This document shows positions 7,761 through 19,989 of a stretch of DNA of 19,989 nucleotides, in pieces. The stretch lies in the NCBI GenBank assembly GCA_002731275.1, contig PCBK01000053.1, positions 100,275-120,263 of the forward strand, written 5' to 3'. Under the pieces are notes generated by a model. That model saw only the letters and a list, made by a program, of their open reading frames with translations. It was not told where the DNA came from and searched no databases. The position numbers and the translations under genes were made by a program. This DNA comes from Deltaproteobacteria bacterium (lineage in GTDB: Bacteria > Myxococcota_C > UBA6777). Each line of letters starts with the position of its first letter. Position 1 is the first letter of the stretch.

Positions 7761-9588
7761 ACGGGAGAAGGCTCCTTGCATAGAGCCCTTTGACTCTCAA
7801 GAGTGTCCCTCTCGGCTTTTTGGCACCAGGGCGTGGGCTGCGATTGTTTGCGTGAATACGTTCCCACATCTGCAAGAAGTTCTCCGCAGAGTGGCGGAGG
7901 TTGTTGATGTCAGCGCCCACACGTTTTAAGTCGAGAAAGAACTCACCGAGCACACCAATGTGTGAGAAGCCGATATTGTCGAAGGTTCGTCCTGTAGCAG
8001 TGTTACGTTGTTTGTGTTTTTGGTAATCCATCTCGCCCAAAAGAGCATTACATGTGAAGGATTTTTCGTCTTTGGCCTGTTGGATTTTTTTGAGCAGGAT
8101 GGGGAGCCCGATCGTAGCAAAGAGTCCAGCCTTGATGCCCAGACTTGCAACACCAAGCGCCGCTGGCGCGAGGAGGAATTTGACGAGAGGCGCGCCGATG
8201 ATGATGCCACCAGTGATCAACATCGGTTTGACTCTTTTGATCACTGCGTGAGCGGGACCATGTTTCCCGATGCACTTGGCGAGATAACTTCCGCCACAGG
8301 CGTATTGTCCAAAACGTGGGACGGTCATCGGGATGAAGCCGTTCAAATCGCTACCAATCCCGACATTTGCGCCCAGACCAAAGTGTGTGTAGTTGTACAT
8401 TTGTGCAAAGGAACGTGTTGATCCGTGACATGTGTTGGCGACCGCTTTGGATGTGTTACGTGGTCTGTAGCCGACCTGCTCCTTGTTTCCTGGACGAAGA
8501 CCGATCATCCCTCCTGTGCGCATGATCAGATCGATCTCTGTGCGACTAATCGCGTTGTGGTGCGCCATAATCTTGCTCTTGGAGGTTGGATCTTCACCGC
8601 TGCGATTCAGTTTGGCGACAGTCGTCTCTTTGATCCATGCGTGGGATGCAAACATCGGATAGTAGCGGTTGCGTCGGACGATATTGTAGGTGTCCCGGAT
8701 GCCTCTCATCGACAGGTGCGCGACATCGATCAGCAAGCGATGCTTCATCATCTCTCTGATCAAGTCTTTTCCCTGCCTTGTCAGCCCGAAGATATTGCGT
8801 CCATGACGATCCGTTCGAAACCCTCGACGGATTCCTTTGATGGCTTTTTTGGCGAAGGCGTCGCCGTATTTTTTCCGGCTCTTCAATGCTTCAAAGATCT
8901 TGAAGGGCATGGCGTGTAATTGTGCGCCACCAAAGCGGTTGTCCATCTCATGGACCGGCTGGATCGAACGCACGCCTGCCTGGACGAGTTTCTTGAGCTG
9001 TGTGCGCCAGGGGCCGTATGTGGGATCCATGAGGTTGGAGACTTCGAGGTGGAGGATGGCCGCGAGTTTTCCCTGACGGATCGCGAGGCGAGCTTCTTGT
9101 GGAGAGCGTACGATCCGGAACCAGGATCGGTGTTTGTGTGCAAAGCGTTTGACCGCGTTGATTTGGTGCCACACAGCGCGCATGTCAGCGCAGCGTTTTG
9201 TGAGCTTTTTATCTTTGTTCCACATCCTGCTCTTGAGTTTGCGGCGCAAAGAGGGTTTGAGGAATCTTCTCGCGACGTCGAGGATGTGACAAAGAGGTTC
9301 GTAGTTGACGATGGAGACCAGCATGATCTTCAAGCCTTCACGGTGGGCTTTTTTGAGCCATGTTGTGTGCATCGCCTGGTGTTGGATATTGCTCCAAATG
9401 GGTGTTCGTCTGGGGCGGTCGTCGTTTCTGCCTTCAAACCACTGTCCATTGTGTGCGAGATGGGCAAAGTGGTGCGCGTGAAGGTCGATATACCCGACGA
9501 CTTTACTTCTCCCTCGTCTGCGTGCGTCTACATCTTGTGGAGGGATGCAGATGAGCGTGAGCATGAATAGTAGGGTCCATTTGTGCAT
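6934..9588 (-). CDS. Secreted peptidase M19-like (membrane/renal dipeptidase family) hydrolase fused to 4 C-terminal ~70-aa Cys/Trp-rich basic repeats
   Basis: Signal peptide MHKWTLLFMLTLICIPP. 'IDLHAHHF' aligns with M19 (V/I)DGHxD. 'HNAISRTEIDLIMRTGGMIGLRPG' aligns with the M19 'RN..D..L.....GGV.G..F' block. 'GIGSDLNGF' aligns with the M19 GxGSDFDG signature. AGGAGA lies 6 nt before the ATG. The C-terminal ~270 aa are four repeats, each CP(G/P)RR..LG.K.GKAICWARPPLRFI...CG.WRGSTSIK.GFC.K..GSWYLARKLKGKGAP. Confidence 0.65.
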   Translation of the reverse strand: MHKWTLLFMLTLICIPPQDVDARRRGRSKVVGYIDLHAHHFAHLAHNGQWFEGRNDDRPRRTPIWSNIQHQAMHTTWLKKAHREGLKIMLVSIVNYEPLCHILDVARRFLKPSLRRKLKSRMWNKDKKLTKRCADMRAVWHQINAVKRFAHKHRSWFRIVRSPQEARLAIRQGKLAAILHLEVSNLMDPTYGPWRTQLKKLVQAGVRSIQPVHEMDNRFGGAQLHAMPFKIFEALKSRKKYGDAFAKKAIKGIRRGFRTDRHGRNIFGLTRQGKDLIREMMKHRLLIDVAHLSMRGIRDTYNIVRRNRYYPMFASHAWIKETTVAKLNRSGEDPTSKSKIMAHHNAISRTEIDLIMRTGGMIGLRPGNKEQVGYRPRNTSKAVANTCHGSTRSFAQMYNYTHFGLGANVGIGSDLNGFIPMTVPRFGQYACGGSYLAKCIGKHGPAHAVIKRVKPMLITGGIIIGAPLVKFLLAPAALGVASLGIKAGLFATIGLPILLKKIQQAKDEKSFTCNALLGEMDYQKHKQRNTATGRTFDNIGFSHIGVLGEFFLDLKRVGADINNLRHSAENFLQMWERIHANNRSPRPGAKKPRGTLLRVKGLYARSLLPSTVCPPRQTRLGLKNGRAICWQLKPKPTILARKCRSWGGNRMIKAGYCVKSMGGWYLARKLRGKGAPNSSGVSCPGRRHQMGKKYGKPLCLAKAPLTFIQTKHCGRWRGSLSILSGHCTKDMRGWYLVRKLKGKGAPTPRNTGGVKCPGRRPLLGVKYGKAICWARPPLRFIAASHCGRWRGSTSIKAGFCTKHQGSWYLARQIKNAGVPKPSTPTCPGRRHFLGVKNGKAICWARPPLRFIKSKRCGKWRGSTSIKSGFCAKSKGSWYLARKLK

Positions 9589-16020: not shown

Positions 16021-16511
16021 CTACGTGAATTCGGAAGGTGATATCTGCGTAGTTATTTCGTCTCTTTCCAAATCCTTCAACAACGACGGGTCCACGACAA
16101 AGGTCTTGCCTCTTTTGATAAGAGCAAATTCCTTGGTTGCGCTTGCGTGGGTGAGAAGATCTCGCAAAGATGCATCTCGTATCTTCTTTGAGTGTGTTGT
16201 TGCTGTGATTATGTTCAGTGACACGGTGTCACCCCAAAAATTCAGGTGTGGTGCTTTCTGGATGGGGATGAGCGCCTGTATGTGGGGTTTTGGGTTGAGG
16301 CAGCGACATTTTTTTGCACCGCAAGGTGTGTCAGGTATTGTTCGATCTCTGGGGTATCCATGGTCGTCGGGTGTCTTTTGTTGTGGAACAGGATGAATCT
16401 CTTGATCCAGCCGACATAGGTCTTTTCTGTTGCACGGGAGTACTGCTTCAGGCGGATGGTAGCTCGGACGCGTTCCAACAACTTTCTTTTGGGAGGTTCG
16501 GGGGAGTTCAT
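16021..16511 (-). pseudogene. intI: Integron-integrase-type tyrosine recombinase (IntI-like), frameshifted and 3'-truncated
   Basis: The intact N-terminal 89 codons (16511..16242) give 'LERVRATIRLKQYSRATEKTYVGWIKRFILFHNKRHPTTMDTPEIEQYLTHLAVQKNVAASTQN'. This matches the IntI SAM-like N-domain pattern (R.I..L.YS.RTEQAYV.WV..FI.FH..RHP.....EVE.FL..LA..R.VS.STH.QAL). The frame breaks right after ASTQN. A second frame (about 16230..16021) reads '...IRDASLRDLL...FALIKRGKTFVVDPSLLKDLE', resembling the box I/'GKG.K.R.VPL' patch region. The HxxR and Tyr-containing C-terminal third is absent in all frames downstream. Confidence 0.65.
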
Positions 16512-16599
16512 GTTTTTTTCTTTTCTGTTGTTTGGTTCTTGAGTGAGTTTTTTGTCTTGTGTATGGGCTTAAGCAACAGATGTGCCAGTTGGGGAGCGG

Positions 16600-16716
16600 T
16601 GGATATCCTGAATTTTTTCCCGATATCACACGATATCGATGGATATCGCGAATTAGTTCAAGATATCGCTTGACAGGTGTGCGATATCTGGACATACTCT
16701 GTCGATATCTGGACAA
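16600..16716. promoter_or_regulatory. Phased array of seven GATATC hexamers (two as the 13-bp direct repeat CGATATCTGGACA) upstream of intI, candidate attI/recombinase or regulator binding region. It contains a sigma70-like TTGACA-17-CATACT facing the cassettes
   Basis: GATATC starts at 16602, 16622, 16632, 16642, 16662, 16683 and 16704, with spacings 20, 10, 10, 20, 21 and 21 bp, about one or two helical turns. 'cgatatctggaca' occurs at 16682-94 and 16703-15. TTGACA at 16670-75, 17-nt spacer, CATACT at 16693-98 on the + strand. Confidence 0.5.
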
Positions 16717-16807
16717 CCATCGTGGATGTCACCTAAAAAGCGGACAAACATTGAATGAGTTCAATAGAATAACAAGTTAATTGTTTTATTGAAATTCAGG
16801 GTTTTAT

Positions 16808-17033: not shown

Positions 17034-18317
17034 ATGTTCAATCCAGAAAACGGTTTTACTTCAGATGTAATAAAAAGTCCTGACAGGTTTGTAGGAAGAA
17101 CGAATCTTGTGATGAGTTGTCTTCGTGTTCTAAATTCAGAACATAGCCTGATCGTTATTTATGGCAAAAGAGGAGTAGGTAAATCTTCTCTACTTCGCCA
17201 AATCCAGCAAATTGCTACGGGAGATTTCACTCTCCCGAAAAAAATGAGTTTACAATACCTGATATCAGAAAAACAGAGGAAGTATTTAACGGTTTACTAT
17301 CAATGCGATTCATTAATTGATGGTTGTGATGAACTGCTACTAAGGTTAGTAAATGATCAAGATGGAGAAGATGGCCTTCTTCGACTCGTTCCGGATGATG
17401 GTAAAGAATTAGTAGAGTTTTCGAGAGCAAAAAGCGTAAATGCAGGTGCTGATCTAAAAATAGTAAAGTGGGGGACTCAGGGAGTTGAAACATCAAGGTA
17501 TGCAAGGACTGTACCTGGTGACGTTGTCCAAACATTTAGAAATTTTTTGAATTCTATTATCACACACCAGTTAAATAAGTATGGGAAAGACGGGATTCTT
17601 ATACTTATCGACGAGTTTGATGTGATTAAAAACAAACATGGAATAGGGTCATTGATAAAGTCCTTAACTTCAGACAAAATAAAATTTGCTATATGTGGTA
17701 TTGCAGATGATGTAAGTTCTCTTGTCGAGGATCATCACTCTGTCGAAAGGTTACTTGAAGAAGGTTCAATGCCTGTTCTCCAAATGCCACATAGTGAATG
17801 TTTGCAAATTTTAAACAGAGCAGAGGAACTTTTTGACAACGAAATTAAATTTGTAGGAGAGGCAAAGGAGAAAATATCTCAACTGAGTTCAGGTTACCCT
17901 TATCTTGTTCAACTGTTTGGTAAAGCGTGCATTCATGAATTAAATAAATATGGAAAAAGTGAGGTCGATGAGTTCGTATTGAATGCCGTACTTAATGCTA
18001 TAAAAAAAGGTGAAGCATTTCCCAGTCTTGAAACTAAATATCAAAGAGCCATTGGGAATTCAGAACAACGACAACTTTTGCTGCATCTATTGTCTGAAGA
18101 AGAAGATAATAGGGAGCAACAAGATTTGGAAATGGGATTGGTCTATTTGAAAAACGTTCGAAAAGAGGCTGTAGGTTTAGAAATAGAGAATATGGACCAA
18201 ATCATCCCAAGATTGGTAGATAAAAAATATGGACCAGTTTTAAGTAAAATTCGAAAAGGTGTATACGAATTCGTTGATCCTGTATTCAGAATATATGTGA
18301 ACCTCAGGGAATTGTAA
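17034..18317 (+). CDS. P-loop NTPase of the AAA+/ATPase_2 (PF01637-like, 'archaeal-type' orphan ATPase) class
   Basis: 'FVGRTNLVMSCLRVLNSEHSLIVIYGKRGVGKSSLL' matches the ATPase_2 N-terminal signature (F.gR..el..L.......vI.G.RR.GKTsLl), including Walker A. Walker B 'ILILIDEFD'. A sensor-like 'SGYPYLVQLFG' corresponds to the family's GG.PyyLq motif. About 38% GC with a strong ribosome-binding site. Confidence 0.75.
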   Translation: MFNPENGFTSDVIKSPDRFVGRTNLVMSCLRVLNSEHSLIVIYGKRGVGKSSLLRQIQQIATGDFTLPKKMSLQYLISEKQRKYLTVYYQCDSLIDGCDELLLRLVNDQDGEDGLLRLVPDDGKELVEFSRAKSVNAGADLKIVKWGTQGVETSRYARTVPGDVVQTFRNFLNSIITHQLNKYGKDGILILIDEFDVIKNKHGIGSLIKSLTSDKIKFAICGIADDVSSLVEDHHSVERLLEEGSMPVLQMPHSECLQILNRAEELFDNEIKFVGEAKEKISQLSSGYPYLVQLFGKACIHELNKYGKSEVDEFVLNAVLNAIKKGEAFPSLETKYQRAIGNSEQRQLLLHLLSEEEDNREQQDLEMGLVYLKNVRKEAVGLEIENMDQIIPRLVDKKYGPVLSKIRKGVYEFVDPVFRIYVNLREL

Positions 18318-18470
18318 GAATCAAGGAGCAACTTAGCGATGAACAAGTCGTTGGAGCGAACATGCCAGGGCACATTCGGTAAAGTCGTTTTCCTACACGA
18401 TATGAAGAGATCCTCAACTACACAAAGAGCCCTGTCATATGCGCTCAACTCAGGCGTTATGTTCTGAAGG
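18318..18470. repeat. attC-like cassette-boundary element, copy A (complete). The first ~75 bp are shared with copy B and the whole is a ~127-bp imperfect nested palindrome
   Basis: 18334-18393 is about 83% identical to 19750-19809, and both contain GTTGGAGCGAACATG. The outer inverted repeat is TGAACAAGTCGTTGGAGCG (18340-58) against CGCTCAACTCAGGCGTTATGTTCTG (18442-66). The inner inverted repeat is GAACATGCCAGGGC (18358-71) against GCCCTGTCATATGC (18429-42), 11/14 complementary. It lies immediately 3' of the ATPase stop. Confidence 0.45.
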
Positions 18471-18760
18471 AGAAAGAGTAAACGCCTGACATAGGCGCAA
18501 TATCAGCAGGAATTAGCTCAATAAAGGTTGCAATAGAAATTGCAAAAGACCTTAAAAATGCAACATCATCTCTTAAAGACGCTGAGGTTAAGCTGAAAAT
18601 AGCTGAGTTATTGGAAGCTATGTCTGAAGTAAAGTCGGCAAACACCAACTCCCTTAACATATTTAATGATAAATTTGTCACAGAGAGAGACTCTCTTAGA
18701 GAAAATAATCTACAAAGATATGGTTTAATGGTTTTTATCTAGAGCGTGTCGAAATTTGGC

Positions 18761-18789
18761 TTGAACTGTAATGCTTACCGTGATATAGG
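18761..18789 (+). promoter_or_regulatory. sigma70-like promoter with extended -10 for the EcsC-family gene
   Basis: TTGAAC (18761-66), 17-nt spacer, then TGaTATAGG (TG at 18781-82, -10 at 18784-89). AGGAGG at 18805-10, ATG at 18820. Confidence 0.4.
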
Positions 18790-18819
18790 ATGGAAAAATA
18801 ATATAGGAGGACCTGTGAA

Positions 18820-19638
18820 ATGAGTACTGCACTTTCACAATATGAGAGAACGGCATTGCAAGAGATCAATGATTGGAAAAGTCCTGAAGAGCAAACTTGG
18901 TTTGGTGCAATTGCCAATGCTGTGTCTTATCCTTTCGATTTGGCAGGAGATGCAGTCATGTCAATTCCAGGAGCACAGACTGCTGTAGAAAAAACTGTGG
19001 GAGGACTCATCTCTCTGCTTAATGATGCTGCACAGTGGAGTATTCCTGCAAACTCAGCTGTCGAATATTACAAAGGAAAAAAGCGCTCTGTAAACAATCG
19101 CAAAGATATTTTCAAACTTGATTTGGAAGAAATAGATGAAGCTATATCTTATACCGGAGCAAAGTACAGGGCTCTTGCTGCAGCGGAGGGGGCAGGAGCT
19201 GGGGCAGTAGGAGTTATTGGTATCCCCGTTGATATTGTAGCACTGGTTGCGATGAATCTGAGAGCGATAGGTGAATATGGAACCTACTGTGGATTTGATA
19301 TGTCAAAAGAACATGAGCGCCTCTTTGCAATGAGAATACTTGGAGTAAGTTCGAGCCCAACTGATGCTGCAAAACAGGTTGCCTTAGCTCAACTTACAAA
19401 AATAGGGAAAGAAGTTGCAAAAAAACAAACTTGGAAGCAATTGGAAAGGCATGGCTTTGTTCGATTAATTCAAGAGATTGCAAAATCACTAGGAATTCGA
19501 CTGACAAAAGCAAAGCTTGCTCAAATCTTACCAGGTGTTGGAGCCGTAATTGGAGGTGGATTCAACGCGTATTATACAGGAAAAACATGTACAACTGCAT
19601 ACTATATGTACAGGGAAAGATTTCTTTTGGAAAAGTAG
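18820..19638 (+). CDS. EcsC-family protein (PF12787-like)
   Basis: N-terminal 'LSQYERTALQEINDWKSPE' matches the EcsC 'E..AL.EI..W' pattern. There is a central Gly/Ala-rich 'AAAEGAGAGAVGVIGIPVDIVALVA' segment. The C-terminal 'LPGVGAVIGGGFNAYYTGKTCTTAYYMYRERF' matches the family's conserved 'IP.IGA.IGGG.N...T.......A...FR' tail. Identification is from memory of the family, not a search. Confidence 0.6.
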   Translation: MSTALSQYERTALQEINDWKSPEEQTWFGAIANAVSYPFDLAGDAVMSIPGAQTAVEKTVGGLISLLNDAAQWSIPANSAVEYYKGKKRSVNNRKDIFKLDLEEIDEAISYTGAKYRALAAAEGAGAGAVGVIGIPVDIVALVAMNLRAIGEYGTYCGFDMSKEHERLFAMRILGVSSSPTDAAKQVALAQLTKIGKEVAKKQTWKQLERHGFVRLIQEIAKSLGIRLTKAKLAQILPGVGAVIGGGFNAYYTGKTCTTAYYMYRERFLLEK

Positions 19639-19732
19639 AAAGAGAGTGTTCTTGATTACAAGTGAGAGATTTTGGATGTCACTACTCCTCTTTCACCATG
19701 AAAAGAATGAAAAGATAAATCGATTTGTAAGC

Positions 19733-19809
19733 AATACAATAAAGCAATTAAGCGGTGAACAAATCGTTGGAGCGAACATGTCAGGGCATAGTCGACAAAC
19801 CCATTTTCC
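19733..19809. repeat. attC-like cassette-boundary element, copy B, 3'-truncated by IS insertion
   Basis: Aligns with the 5' ~75 bp of copy A through '...cattttcc', then abruptly becomes GTAACCGGGCGAGC, the IS66-type terminal repeat. It is the only reason the 87-aa ORF 19550..19813 stays open. Confidence 0.45.
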
Positions 19810-19989
19810 GTAACCGGGCGAGCTAGAACGTCTTGAAAAGGAAATGAAAAGAAAAGAAGCAAGCTCCTTCAAAATATCAAACCGAAGGAGAAAAAATATG
19901 GCTTACAATCGTTCCGAACACTGGCGACCAATCATCGAGCAATTCGAAGTCTCTGGCCTTACGCAAAGTGACTTCGCCGAGCAACACGA
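19810..19989 (+). mobile_element. IS66-family insertion sequence, left end (IRL plus start of tnpA). It continues beyond the window
   Basis: GTAACCGGGCGAGC at 19810 resembles the IS66-family 'GTAAGCG...' terminal inverted repeat. 88 bp later, AAGGAG with a 7-nt spacer precedes an ATG whose product 'MAYNRSEHWRPIIEQFEVSGLTQSDFAEQH...' fits the IS66 TnpA accessory-protein N-terminus (W..II..F..SGL.Q..F....GI). Confidence 0.5.
19898..19989 (+). CDS. tnpA: IS66-family TnpA (orfA) N-terminal 30 codons, partial
   Basis: See the mobile-element entry above. Helix-turn-helix-like 'SGLTQSDFAEQH' segment. The ORF runs off the window end. Confidence 0.45.
   Translation, partial: MAYNRSEHWRPIIEQFEVSGLTQSDFAEQH

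Follow-up and report, generated by a model that had tools for sequence, protein, structure and literature searches.

The repeat behind two cassette-like genes of a marine metagenome-assembled genome is very probably the left half of an integron attC site

What is the short sequence that recurs behind two genes near the right end of a stretch of contig PCBK01000053.1 (assembly GCA_002731275.1)? The window, that is, the whole stretch of 19,989 nt analysed here (contig positions 100,275 to 120,263), carries two copies of this repeat, A and B. An earlier note on this stretch had described a conserved element of about 75 bp after both cassette open reading frames (ORFs) and had offered two readings of it, an attC-like DNA site and a conserved C-terminal peptide. 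We find that the repeat is very probably the left half (R''-spacer-L''-loop) of an ordinary integron attC site, which is a known kind of element and not a new one. With the same high confidence, we read the locus as a degenerate chromosomal integron in a marine metagenome-assembled genome (MAG), in which two such sites, attC_A and attC_B, close the cassettes. The same sequence recurs in numerous Tara Oceans assemblies, and NCBI lists a MAG that contains it under the name 'Deltaproteobacteria bacterium'. The two copies are:

18327..18393, plus strand: copy A of the repeat, read as the left part of attC_A (from the A-B alignment and a core scan)
19743..19810, plus strand: copy B of the repeat, read as the left part of attC_B (82% identity to A, identical L'' box and AAC, homology that stops at the end of an insertion sequence)

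A and B are direct copies that align without gaps (18327-18393 with 19743-19809) and share 55 of 67 bases (82%). A scan for the 21-nt core with up to three mismatches found matches in the window at A and B only, as compared with none in 200 shuffles. The earlier note had allowed that two copies inside a segmental duplication would say nothing about cassette boundaries. There are indeed only two copies in the window, but since the sequences flanking A and B are unrelated, the repeat is not part of a larger segmental duplication. Its placement directly at the 3' ends of ORFs holds for A, which begins 10 nt past the stop codon of an ATPase gene, but not for B, which begins 105 nt past the stop codon of an EcsC-family gene. 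The differences between the copies are unevenly spread, with two in the 27 nt that would hold the recombination boxes (18338-18364) versus eight in the 29 nt of the adjoining loop (18365-18393). Judged from this comparison, the 82% identity reflects the conservation of attC sites within one array, with nearly invariant boxes and a freer loop. The element had also been taken for an imperfect palindrome with nested inverted repeats. This description did not survive: as DNA, the 83-nt repeat alone folds no better than its shuffles (z +0.41, -0.01, -0.30 and +1.50 for both copies and strands), and A has its inverted partner outside the repeat, 60-100 nt further downstream (18430-18462).

In an attC site, the bottom strand forms a hairpin by pairing R'' to R' and L'' to L', with an unpaired spacer between the two helices and extrahelical bases on the '' arm. 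The integrase IntI binds this folded site and cleaves the R box, which in the top strand corresponds to the position between G and TT of R', and the cassette is excised or inserted. At copy A all of these parts can be placed:

18338..18462, plus strand: attC_A, complete site of about 125 nt (covariance-model match, bottom-strand fold and box layout)
18338-44, plus strand: R'' box of attC_A, GATGAAC (this and the following parts from the box layout)
18345-49, plus strand: left spacer, AAGTC
18350-56, plus strand: L'' box, GTTGGAG, with one extra G
18444-49, plus strand: L' box, CTCAAC
18450-55, plus strand: right spacer, TCAGGC
18456-62, plus strand: R' box, GTTATGT

On the plus strand the site thus reads GATGAAC / AAGTC / GTTGGAGCG... 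...CGCTCAAC / TCAGGC / GTTATGT, and its right part (18430-18462) stands outside the repeat. When the minus strand of 18310-18520 is folded, the core of A (18347-18371) pairs with 18430-18455. Local alignment recovers this inverted match too (score 22; 95th percentile of shuffles 19-20). The L boxes form the expected helix, GTTG[G]AG with CTCAAC, which leaves an extrahelical G on the '' arm, and nine of the first 12 positions of the stem beyond GTTGGAG pair as well. Both R-box triplets (AAC at 18342-44 and GTT at 18456-58) align to the R box of the model described below, and the AAC recurs in B at 19758-60. The box layout is the same as that of 13 reference attC sites, and the total length of 125 nt is within the attC range of about 57-141 nt; attC sites are imperfect palindromes whose variable terminal structure spans 20-100 nt. 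In attC_A, IntI-mediated exchange on the folded bottom strand would fall at the G/TT of R', most likely at 18456/18457.

To search for attC sites, we built a covariance model of our own, in place of the one used by IntegronFinder, from 13 class-1 plasmid attC sites and no sequence from the window. The reference set consisted of the 60-nt aadA1 attC, which is found with 100% identity in about 2,000 plasmids and stands directly 3' of aadA1 in R100, and of 12 attC sites cut from annotated class-1 arrays. The model comprises seven R-box pairs and six L-box pairs with the bulge, and was run unfiltered over both strands of the whole 20-kb window. It returned a single significant match, 18342-18458 on the plus strand, with 24.1 bits and an E-value of 6e-4; the next best match had an E-value of 8. 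Class-1 attC sites outside the training set scored 29.5, 30.7 and 52 bits, which places attC_A just below them, and in an empirical background of about 0.8 Mb no comparable model match occurred outside attC-like sites. With this match and an integrase remnant upstream, the suggestion of an attC-like DNA site stands as to its kind; as to its extent it does not, as the repeat makes up only the left half of the roughly 125-nt site. A cruder scan for AAC, GTT and an L stem by regular expression also found the site but gave five matches where 1.4 were expected, which is near chance, and the covariance model was used instead.

Several observations weigh against this assignment. The model match to attC_A is local, covering positions 5-56 of 60, and the fold of the whole site is only weakly better than shuffles (z -1.44). 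A second GTT at 18461 leaves the crossover position uncertain by 5 nt. The R box is unpaired beyond AAC/GTT, with GATG facing ATGT. Neither did the public scans yield a further copy with loop similarity to A and B. The left half of B alone had no model match, but this search is uninformative, as the control with the left half of A likewise had none. There is also a competing hairpin at 18431-18510, which is much stronger than the attC fold: the segment 18430-18510 folds with -16.1 kcal/mol (z -4.57), a value reached by none of 200 shuffles. Its formation would tie up R' at the expense of the attC fold. As for the R box, comparison of R'' (GATGAAC in A, GGTGAAC in B) and R' (GTTATGT) with the consensus RYYYAAC/GTTRRRY shows that only the triplets pair. 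Outside its triplet, the remaining four bases of R' are part of the next cassette. In attC sites, only the R-box triplets are reported to be strongly conserved (PMC4889954).

The right-hand arm of this competing hairpin is a feature in its own right:

18481..18512, minus strand: diverged inverted copy of the right half of attC_A, which forms a hairpin with 18431-18458

The two arms share a perfect 9-bp match (TCAGGCGTT/AACGCCTGA), and the AAC of L' is replaced in the inverted copy. The terminator scan gave only weak terminator-like matches at the inverted half-site. We also considered the hairpin as the attC site itself and rejected it, because a GTT is missing from its 3' end and the AAC falls in an internal loop. 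That attC_A carries more than a recombination site is an unlikely proposal, and it takes two forms. Either a 42-codon ORF with a Shine-Dalgarno sequence (18339-18467, from R'' to just past R') would be translated and would couple ribosomes to the next cassette, for which ORF-11 in attI1 offers a precedent, or the inverted half-site would pair with R' and the spacer and 'lock' the site against its recombinogenic fold, so that the cassette becomes fixed.

Independent evidence for attC_A as an attC site came from unrelated metagenomes. Scanning metagenome contigs with the 17-base box string GAACAANTCGTTGGAGCG gave 119 matches in 118 loci. CTCAAC-N5/6-GTT follows within 150 nt downstream in 13 of the 119, where 0.29 would be expected, and in 15 loci a covariance-model attC match begins exactly at the string. 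Four short environmental contigs (L035, L070, L100 and L122) are cassette arrays with two or more attC matches each, 0.5-2 kb apart (in L070, L100 and L122 about 0.5-1 kb), and in two others (L056 and L121) the site adjoins a divergent integron-integrase gene of which the 5' end is present. For 20 related sites we examined whether the boxes vary as paired strands. Among the cells of the R and L boxes, 92.8% form standard pairs, seven of 13 box pairs change on both sides, and the covariation score is 0.182 versus 0.063 in shuffles, a value reached by none of 500; the alignment of the 20 sites was fitted to the model, and these counts lean towards structure. When the partner columns are slid as a control, pairing falls to 22-44%. 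The L helix alone is 99.2% paired, and four of its six pairs change on both sides. The stems beside the L box also favour their own partner over the partners of other sites, with 97 of 20,000 permutations reaching the observed value.

These sites define an environmental attC class from soil, sediment and other metagenomes, with a left end of xGAAC-AAnTC-GTTGGAGCGG and a right end of CCGCTCAAC-N5/6-GTT. It agrees with attC_A in the R''-spacer-L'' string, in the L' box and in the extra G of L'', all of which are identical. In loop and extended stem, A and B are alike but unrelated in sequence to this class, and the GC content is lower here (0.48). What the repeat carries at its left end is therefore the R''-spacer-L'' module of an attC class that is widespread in the environment. 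The box string GAACAAnTCGTTGGAGCG seems to mark a common class of such sites and offers an inexpensive probe for cassette arrays. In further scans, a 20-base core had no match in metagenome contigs and one exact match in genome contigs, in a protein-coding region otherwise unlike the repeat, and the 17-base string had no match in viral contigs.

The class-1 attC sites, also known as 59-base elements (aadA1, cmlA1, catB3 and blaIMP-45), show the same order of parts as attC_A, namely R'' ending in AAC, a 5-nt spacer, L'', stem and loop, L' ending in AAC, a 5-6-nt spacer, and R' beginning with GTT, and they share the extra base in L''. Even the spacers recur: AAGTC of A is that of blaIMP-45, AAATC of B that of cmlA1, and TCAGGC of A that of catB3 and cmlA1. 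The arrangement of the class-1 integron of R100, in which intI1 is divergent and upstream of aadA1 and its attC, both on the same strand, resembles that of the window. Unlike the class-1 sites, attC_A has G instead of T or C before the AAC of R'', and its outer four R-box positions misfit RYYY/RRRY and stay unpaired; the related environmental sites also carry xGAAC. Furthermore, attC_A is longer (125 nt) with a poorly structured loop, and its host is a marine MAG and not a clinical plasmid. Sites within one sedentary array, such as the Vibrio cholerae repeats, are alike along their whole length, the loop included. In this respect the window resembles the sedentary chromosomal integrons, as A and B resemble each other over the full length of the repeat with its loop (82%). 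In contrast to those integrons, the window shows only two cassettes and no functional integrase.

We then turned to the readings that do not invoke recombination. It is very unlikely that the element encodes a peptide, either the C-terminal tail (R/T)IK(E)QLS(D/G)EQ(V/I)VGANM(P/S)GH(I/S)R or the product of a mini-ORF, MNKSLERTCQG.... The frames exist as the earlier note described them: one runs through 18278-18382 and ends in ...RIKEQLSDEQVVGANMPGHIR, its counterpart in B runs through 19550-19813 and ends in ...TIKQLSGEQIVGANMSGHSRQTHFP, and a 42-aa ORF occupies 18339-18467, which is almost exactly the span of attC_A. Neither frame is interrupted within the repeat in A or B, AAGGAG stands 10 nt ahead of the ATG of the mini-ORF in A, and one gene caller predicted such a mini-ORF on another contig. 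However, the first frame lacks a start codon in A and lies inside or overlaps the EcsC gene in B, while the Shine-Dalgarno sequence claimed for the mini-ORF is present in A and absent from B. Substitution patterns, which had been proposed as the way to decide, also argue against coding. Each open frame shows three synonymous versus seven non-synonymous codon differences between A and B, with no synonymous excess. Finally, since the attC sites from unrelated metagenomes share with A only the box string of about 18 nt, and the sequence after it, including the 'peptide', is wholly different, the basis for a conserved peptide is removed. A six-frame composite query of the peptide against 5.8 billion proteins gave no match at E-values up to 10, a search of low power for short peptides that also missed the 42-aa ORF called elsewhere. 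The peptide readings are by-products of conserved recombination boxes, and no gene should be annotated for the 'conserved peptide'.

Less probable still is a structure that works in the transcript at gene 3' ends, be it an intrinsic terminator, a repeat of the repetitive extragenic palindromic type or a small RNA. The element does lie downstream of ORFs, and A contains a small local hairpin at 18357-18379. Against this, neither strand of the repeat gives a fold that improves on shuffles, and only two copies are present in 20 kb. The terminator scan found no GC-rich hairpin with a T run inside 18327-18393 or 19743-19809, and its total for the region was 4 versus 2.3 +/- 1.6 in shuffles. An Rfam search had no match within the repeat and a best E-value above 3 elsewhere. 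Scans for tRNA and tmRNA genes found nothing at the repeat, which rules out an integration site in an RNA gene. Just as improbable is the idea that A and B are scars of the attL/attR type left by an integrative element of another kind, or remains of a segmental duplication, with no relation to cassette boundaries: only two copies were found, and the block from 16182 onward has a different left flank in another contig (L003), so that some larger unit has moved or rearranged, but the flanks of A and B are unrelated, there is no third copy at the left end, the only recombinase remnant is of the integron type, and both the attC model and the metagenomic attC family match, right half included.

If attC_A is a complete site, why does B end after its left half? 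The homology of B to A ends at 19810/19811, precisely where an element of the IS66 family of insertion sequences (IS) begins, and A runs on. The parts involved are:

19754-60, plus strand: R'' box of attC_B, GGTGAAC (this and the next two parts by comparison with A)
19761-65, plus strand: left spacer of attC_B, AAATC
19766-72, plus strand: L'' box of attC_B, GTTGGAG, identical to that of A and followed by the loop
19811..19989, plus strand: left end of an IS66-family element, which starts with GTAACCGGGCGAGC; tnpA from 19898 (TnpA profile match)

The full TnpA, taken from an identical metagenome contig (L002), matches NF047593 (IS66_ISAeme5_TnpA) with an E-value of 4.7e-18 and 65.5 bits, where the cut-off is 28, and the start of TnpB that follows gives a weak match. 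Elements of the IS66 family carry TnpA and TnpB accessory genes behind a terminal inverted repeat and make an 8-bp target duplication. From these sequences, B is most likely the left half of a second attC site, split by the insertion of an IS66-family element in its loop. The earlier note had dated the insertion as later than the repeat; this order is borne out by B being cut at the end of the IS while A continues. Insertion into the loop of attC_B would predict, to the right of the IS, an 8-bp duplication CATTTTCC, a loop remainder of about 35-50 nt and then GCGCTCAAC-N5/6-GTT (as CGCTCAAC-N5/6-GTT). Where the second copy is truncated in this way, aligning the two yields no more than the left half of an attC site, and the palindromic partner must be sought outside the repeat. 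Mobile elements that interrupt attC sites are known from the IS1111-attC group and the group IIC-attC introns, both of which target attC specifically, at a fixed position and in a fixed orientation. In contrast to these elements, attC specificity is not indicated for the IS66 element, of which one insertion is seen. In the MAG GCA_002720785.1 (contig PBIH01000038.1; L001, 12860-13280), the IS66 region is collapsed or chimeric. There, tnpA is scrambled after about 20 codons and followed by an unrelated YhcG/DUF1016 gene, while it is intact in metagenome contigs; this scrambling is probably an assembly artefact at a repeated IS.

The remainder of the locus is arranged as in an integron. Upstream of the two sites we identified the following features:

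16242..16511, minus strand: integron integrase remnant (delta-intI), N-terminal 89 codons (PF13495, E 4.1e-24)
16760..16772, plus strand: putative attI core TAACAAG/TTAATT at the start of cassette 1 (by likeness to the attI1 core AAACAAAG/TTAAAC read in R100)
17034..18317, plus strand: ORF of cassette 1, P-loop/STAND-like ATPase of 427 aa (AAA_16 and nSTAND1 matches; GC 0.35-0.39)
18820..19638, plus strand: ORF of cassette 2, EcsC-family protein of 272 aa (PF12787, E 3.4e-36)

PF13495 is the N-terminal SAM-like domain of integrases, and the best NCBIfam match of delta-intI is TIGR02249, 'integron integrase' (E 8.6e-21, profile positions 1-66 of 315). A tblastn search with IntI1 from R100 gave a match over residues 2-79, with 42% identity and an E-value of 3e-14, at window positions 16517-16290. 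PF00589 had no match in delta-intI, and the catalytic domain is missing. Homologues of delta-intI are at most 73% identical to it, and all are short. The remnant is divergent from the cassette ORFs, both of which lie on the plus strand, as does attC_A. Between the remnant and the first cassette ORF, at a drop in GC content from about 0.48 to 0.36, lies the sequence TAACAAG/TTAATT (16760-16772), which may be the junction of attI and cassette 1 by its likeness to attI1. From about 16.5 kb to its end, the window has a GC content of 0.35-0.42, as compared with about 0.5 before that point.

Taken together, the proposed layout would begin with a truncated intI, encoded on the minus strand, followed by a putative attI, then by cassette 1 with the ATPase gene and attC_A and by cassette 2 with the EcsC gene and the left half of attC_B (19754-19810). 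The low-GC block from 16.2 to 19.8 kb would then be a decayed integron, with the ATPase and EcsC genes as cassettes gained horizontally and one at a time. With no catalytic domain left in the local integrase and with attC_B split, neither site is likely to be active now, and the array is probably frozen. IntI supplied in trans could still act on attC_A. IntegronFinder calls a cluster of attC sites lacking integrases (CALIN) from at least two attC sites, and the window locus might not be called. CALIN and degenerate integrons (PMC4889954) resemble the window in having attC sites and cassettes beside an inactivated intI, with an IS inside the element; in contrast to them, only one intact attC is left here. 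Cury et al. 2016 (PMC4889954) report pseudogenes of intI near 15 of 279 CALIN, and the presence of an IS in 12% of CALIN as against 23% of complete integrons.

Some further observations concern the cassettes and their surroundings. The EcsC-family protein matches the PADLOC candidate defence families PDC-S29 (E 4e-11) and PDC-S30 (E 1.5e-9), and the cassette 1 ATPase has weak matches only to STAND and defence ATPases. By these profile matches, the two cassettes may carry anti-phage genes. Between them, an open frame of 85 codons (18485-18742, plus strand; PDIGAISAGISSIKVAIEIAKDLK...) with the look of a coiled coil begins inside the inverted half-site. Its first ATG, GTG or TTG is at codon 43, and it has a weak Snf7 match (E 0.0036). 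This frame may be a cassette gene truncated at its 5' end.

The intergenic region between intI and attI (16597-16723) is rich in GATATC motifs and contains a 21-nt repeat in two tandem copies (CGATATCTGGACA...; 16682-16702 and 16703-16723), as well as a 37-nt palindrome. By analogy with DR1 and DR2 of attI1, these motifs may be binding sites for an integrase accessory factor or a regulator. The block from 16182 onward, with delta-intI, both cassettes and the end of the IS66 element, is 99.2% identical in contig L003 (9154-12956), where the left flank is wholly different and codes for leucine-rich repeat and WD40 proteins. The breakpoint at 16182 lies just past the intI remnant and near a palindrome, GTGACACGGTGTCAC (16218-16232). 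In L003, degenerate direct repeats of about 40 nt (TTCCAAAAAAAGCCAATGTTCGCTTTTTGGAGATA...) occupy 8480-8900, upstream of the block shared with the window.

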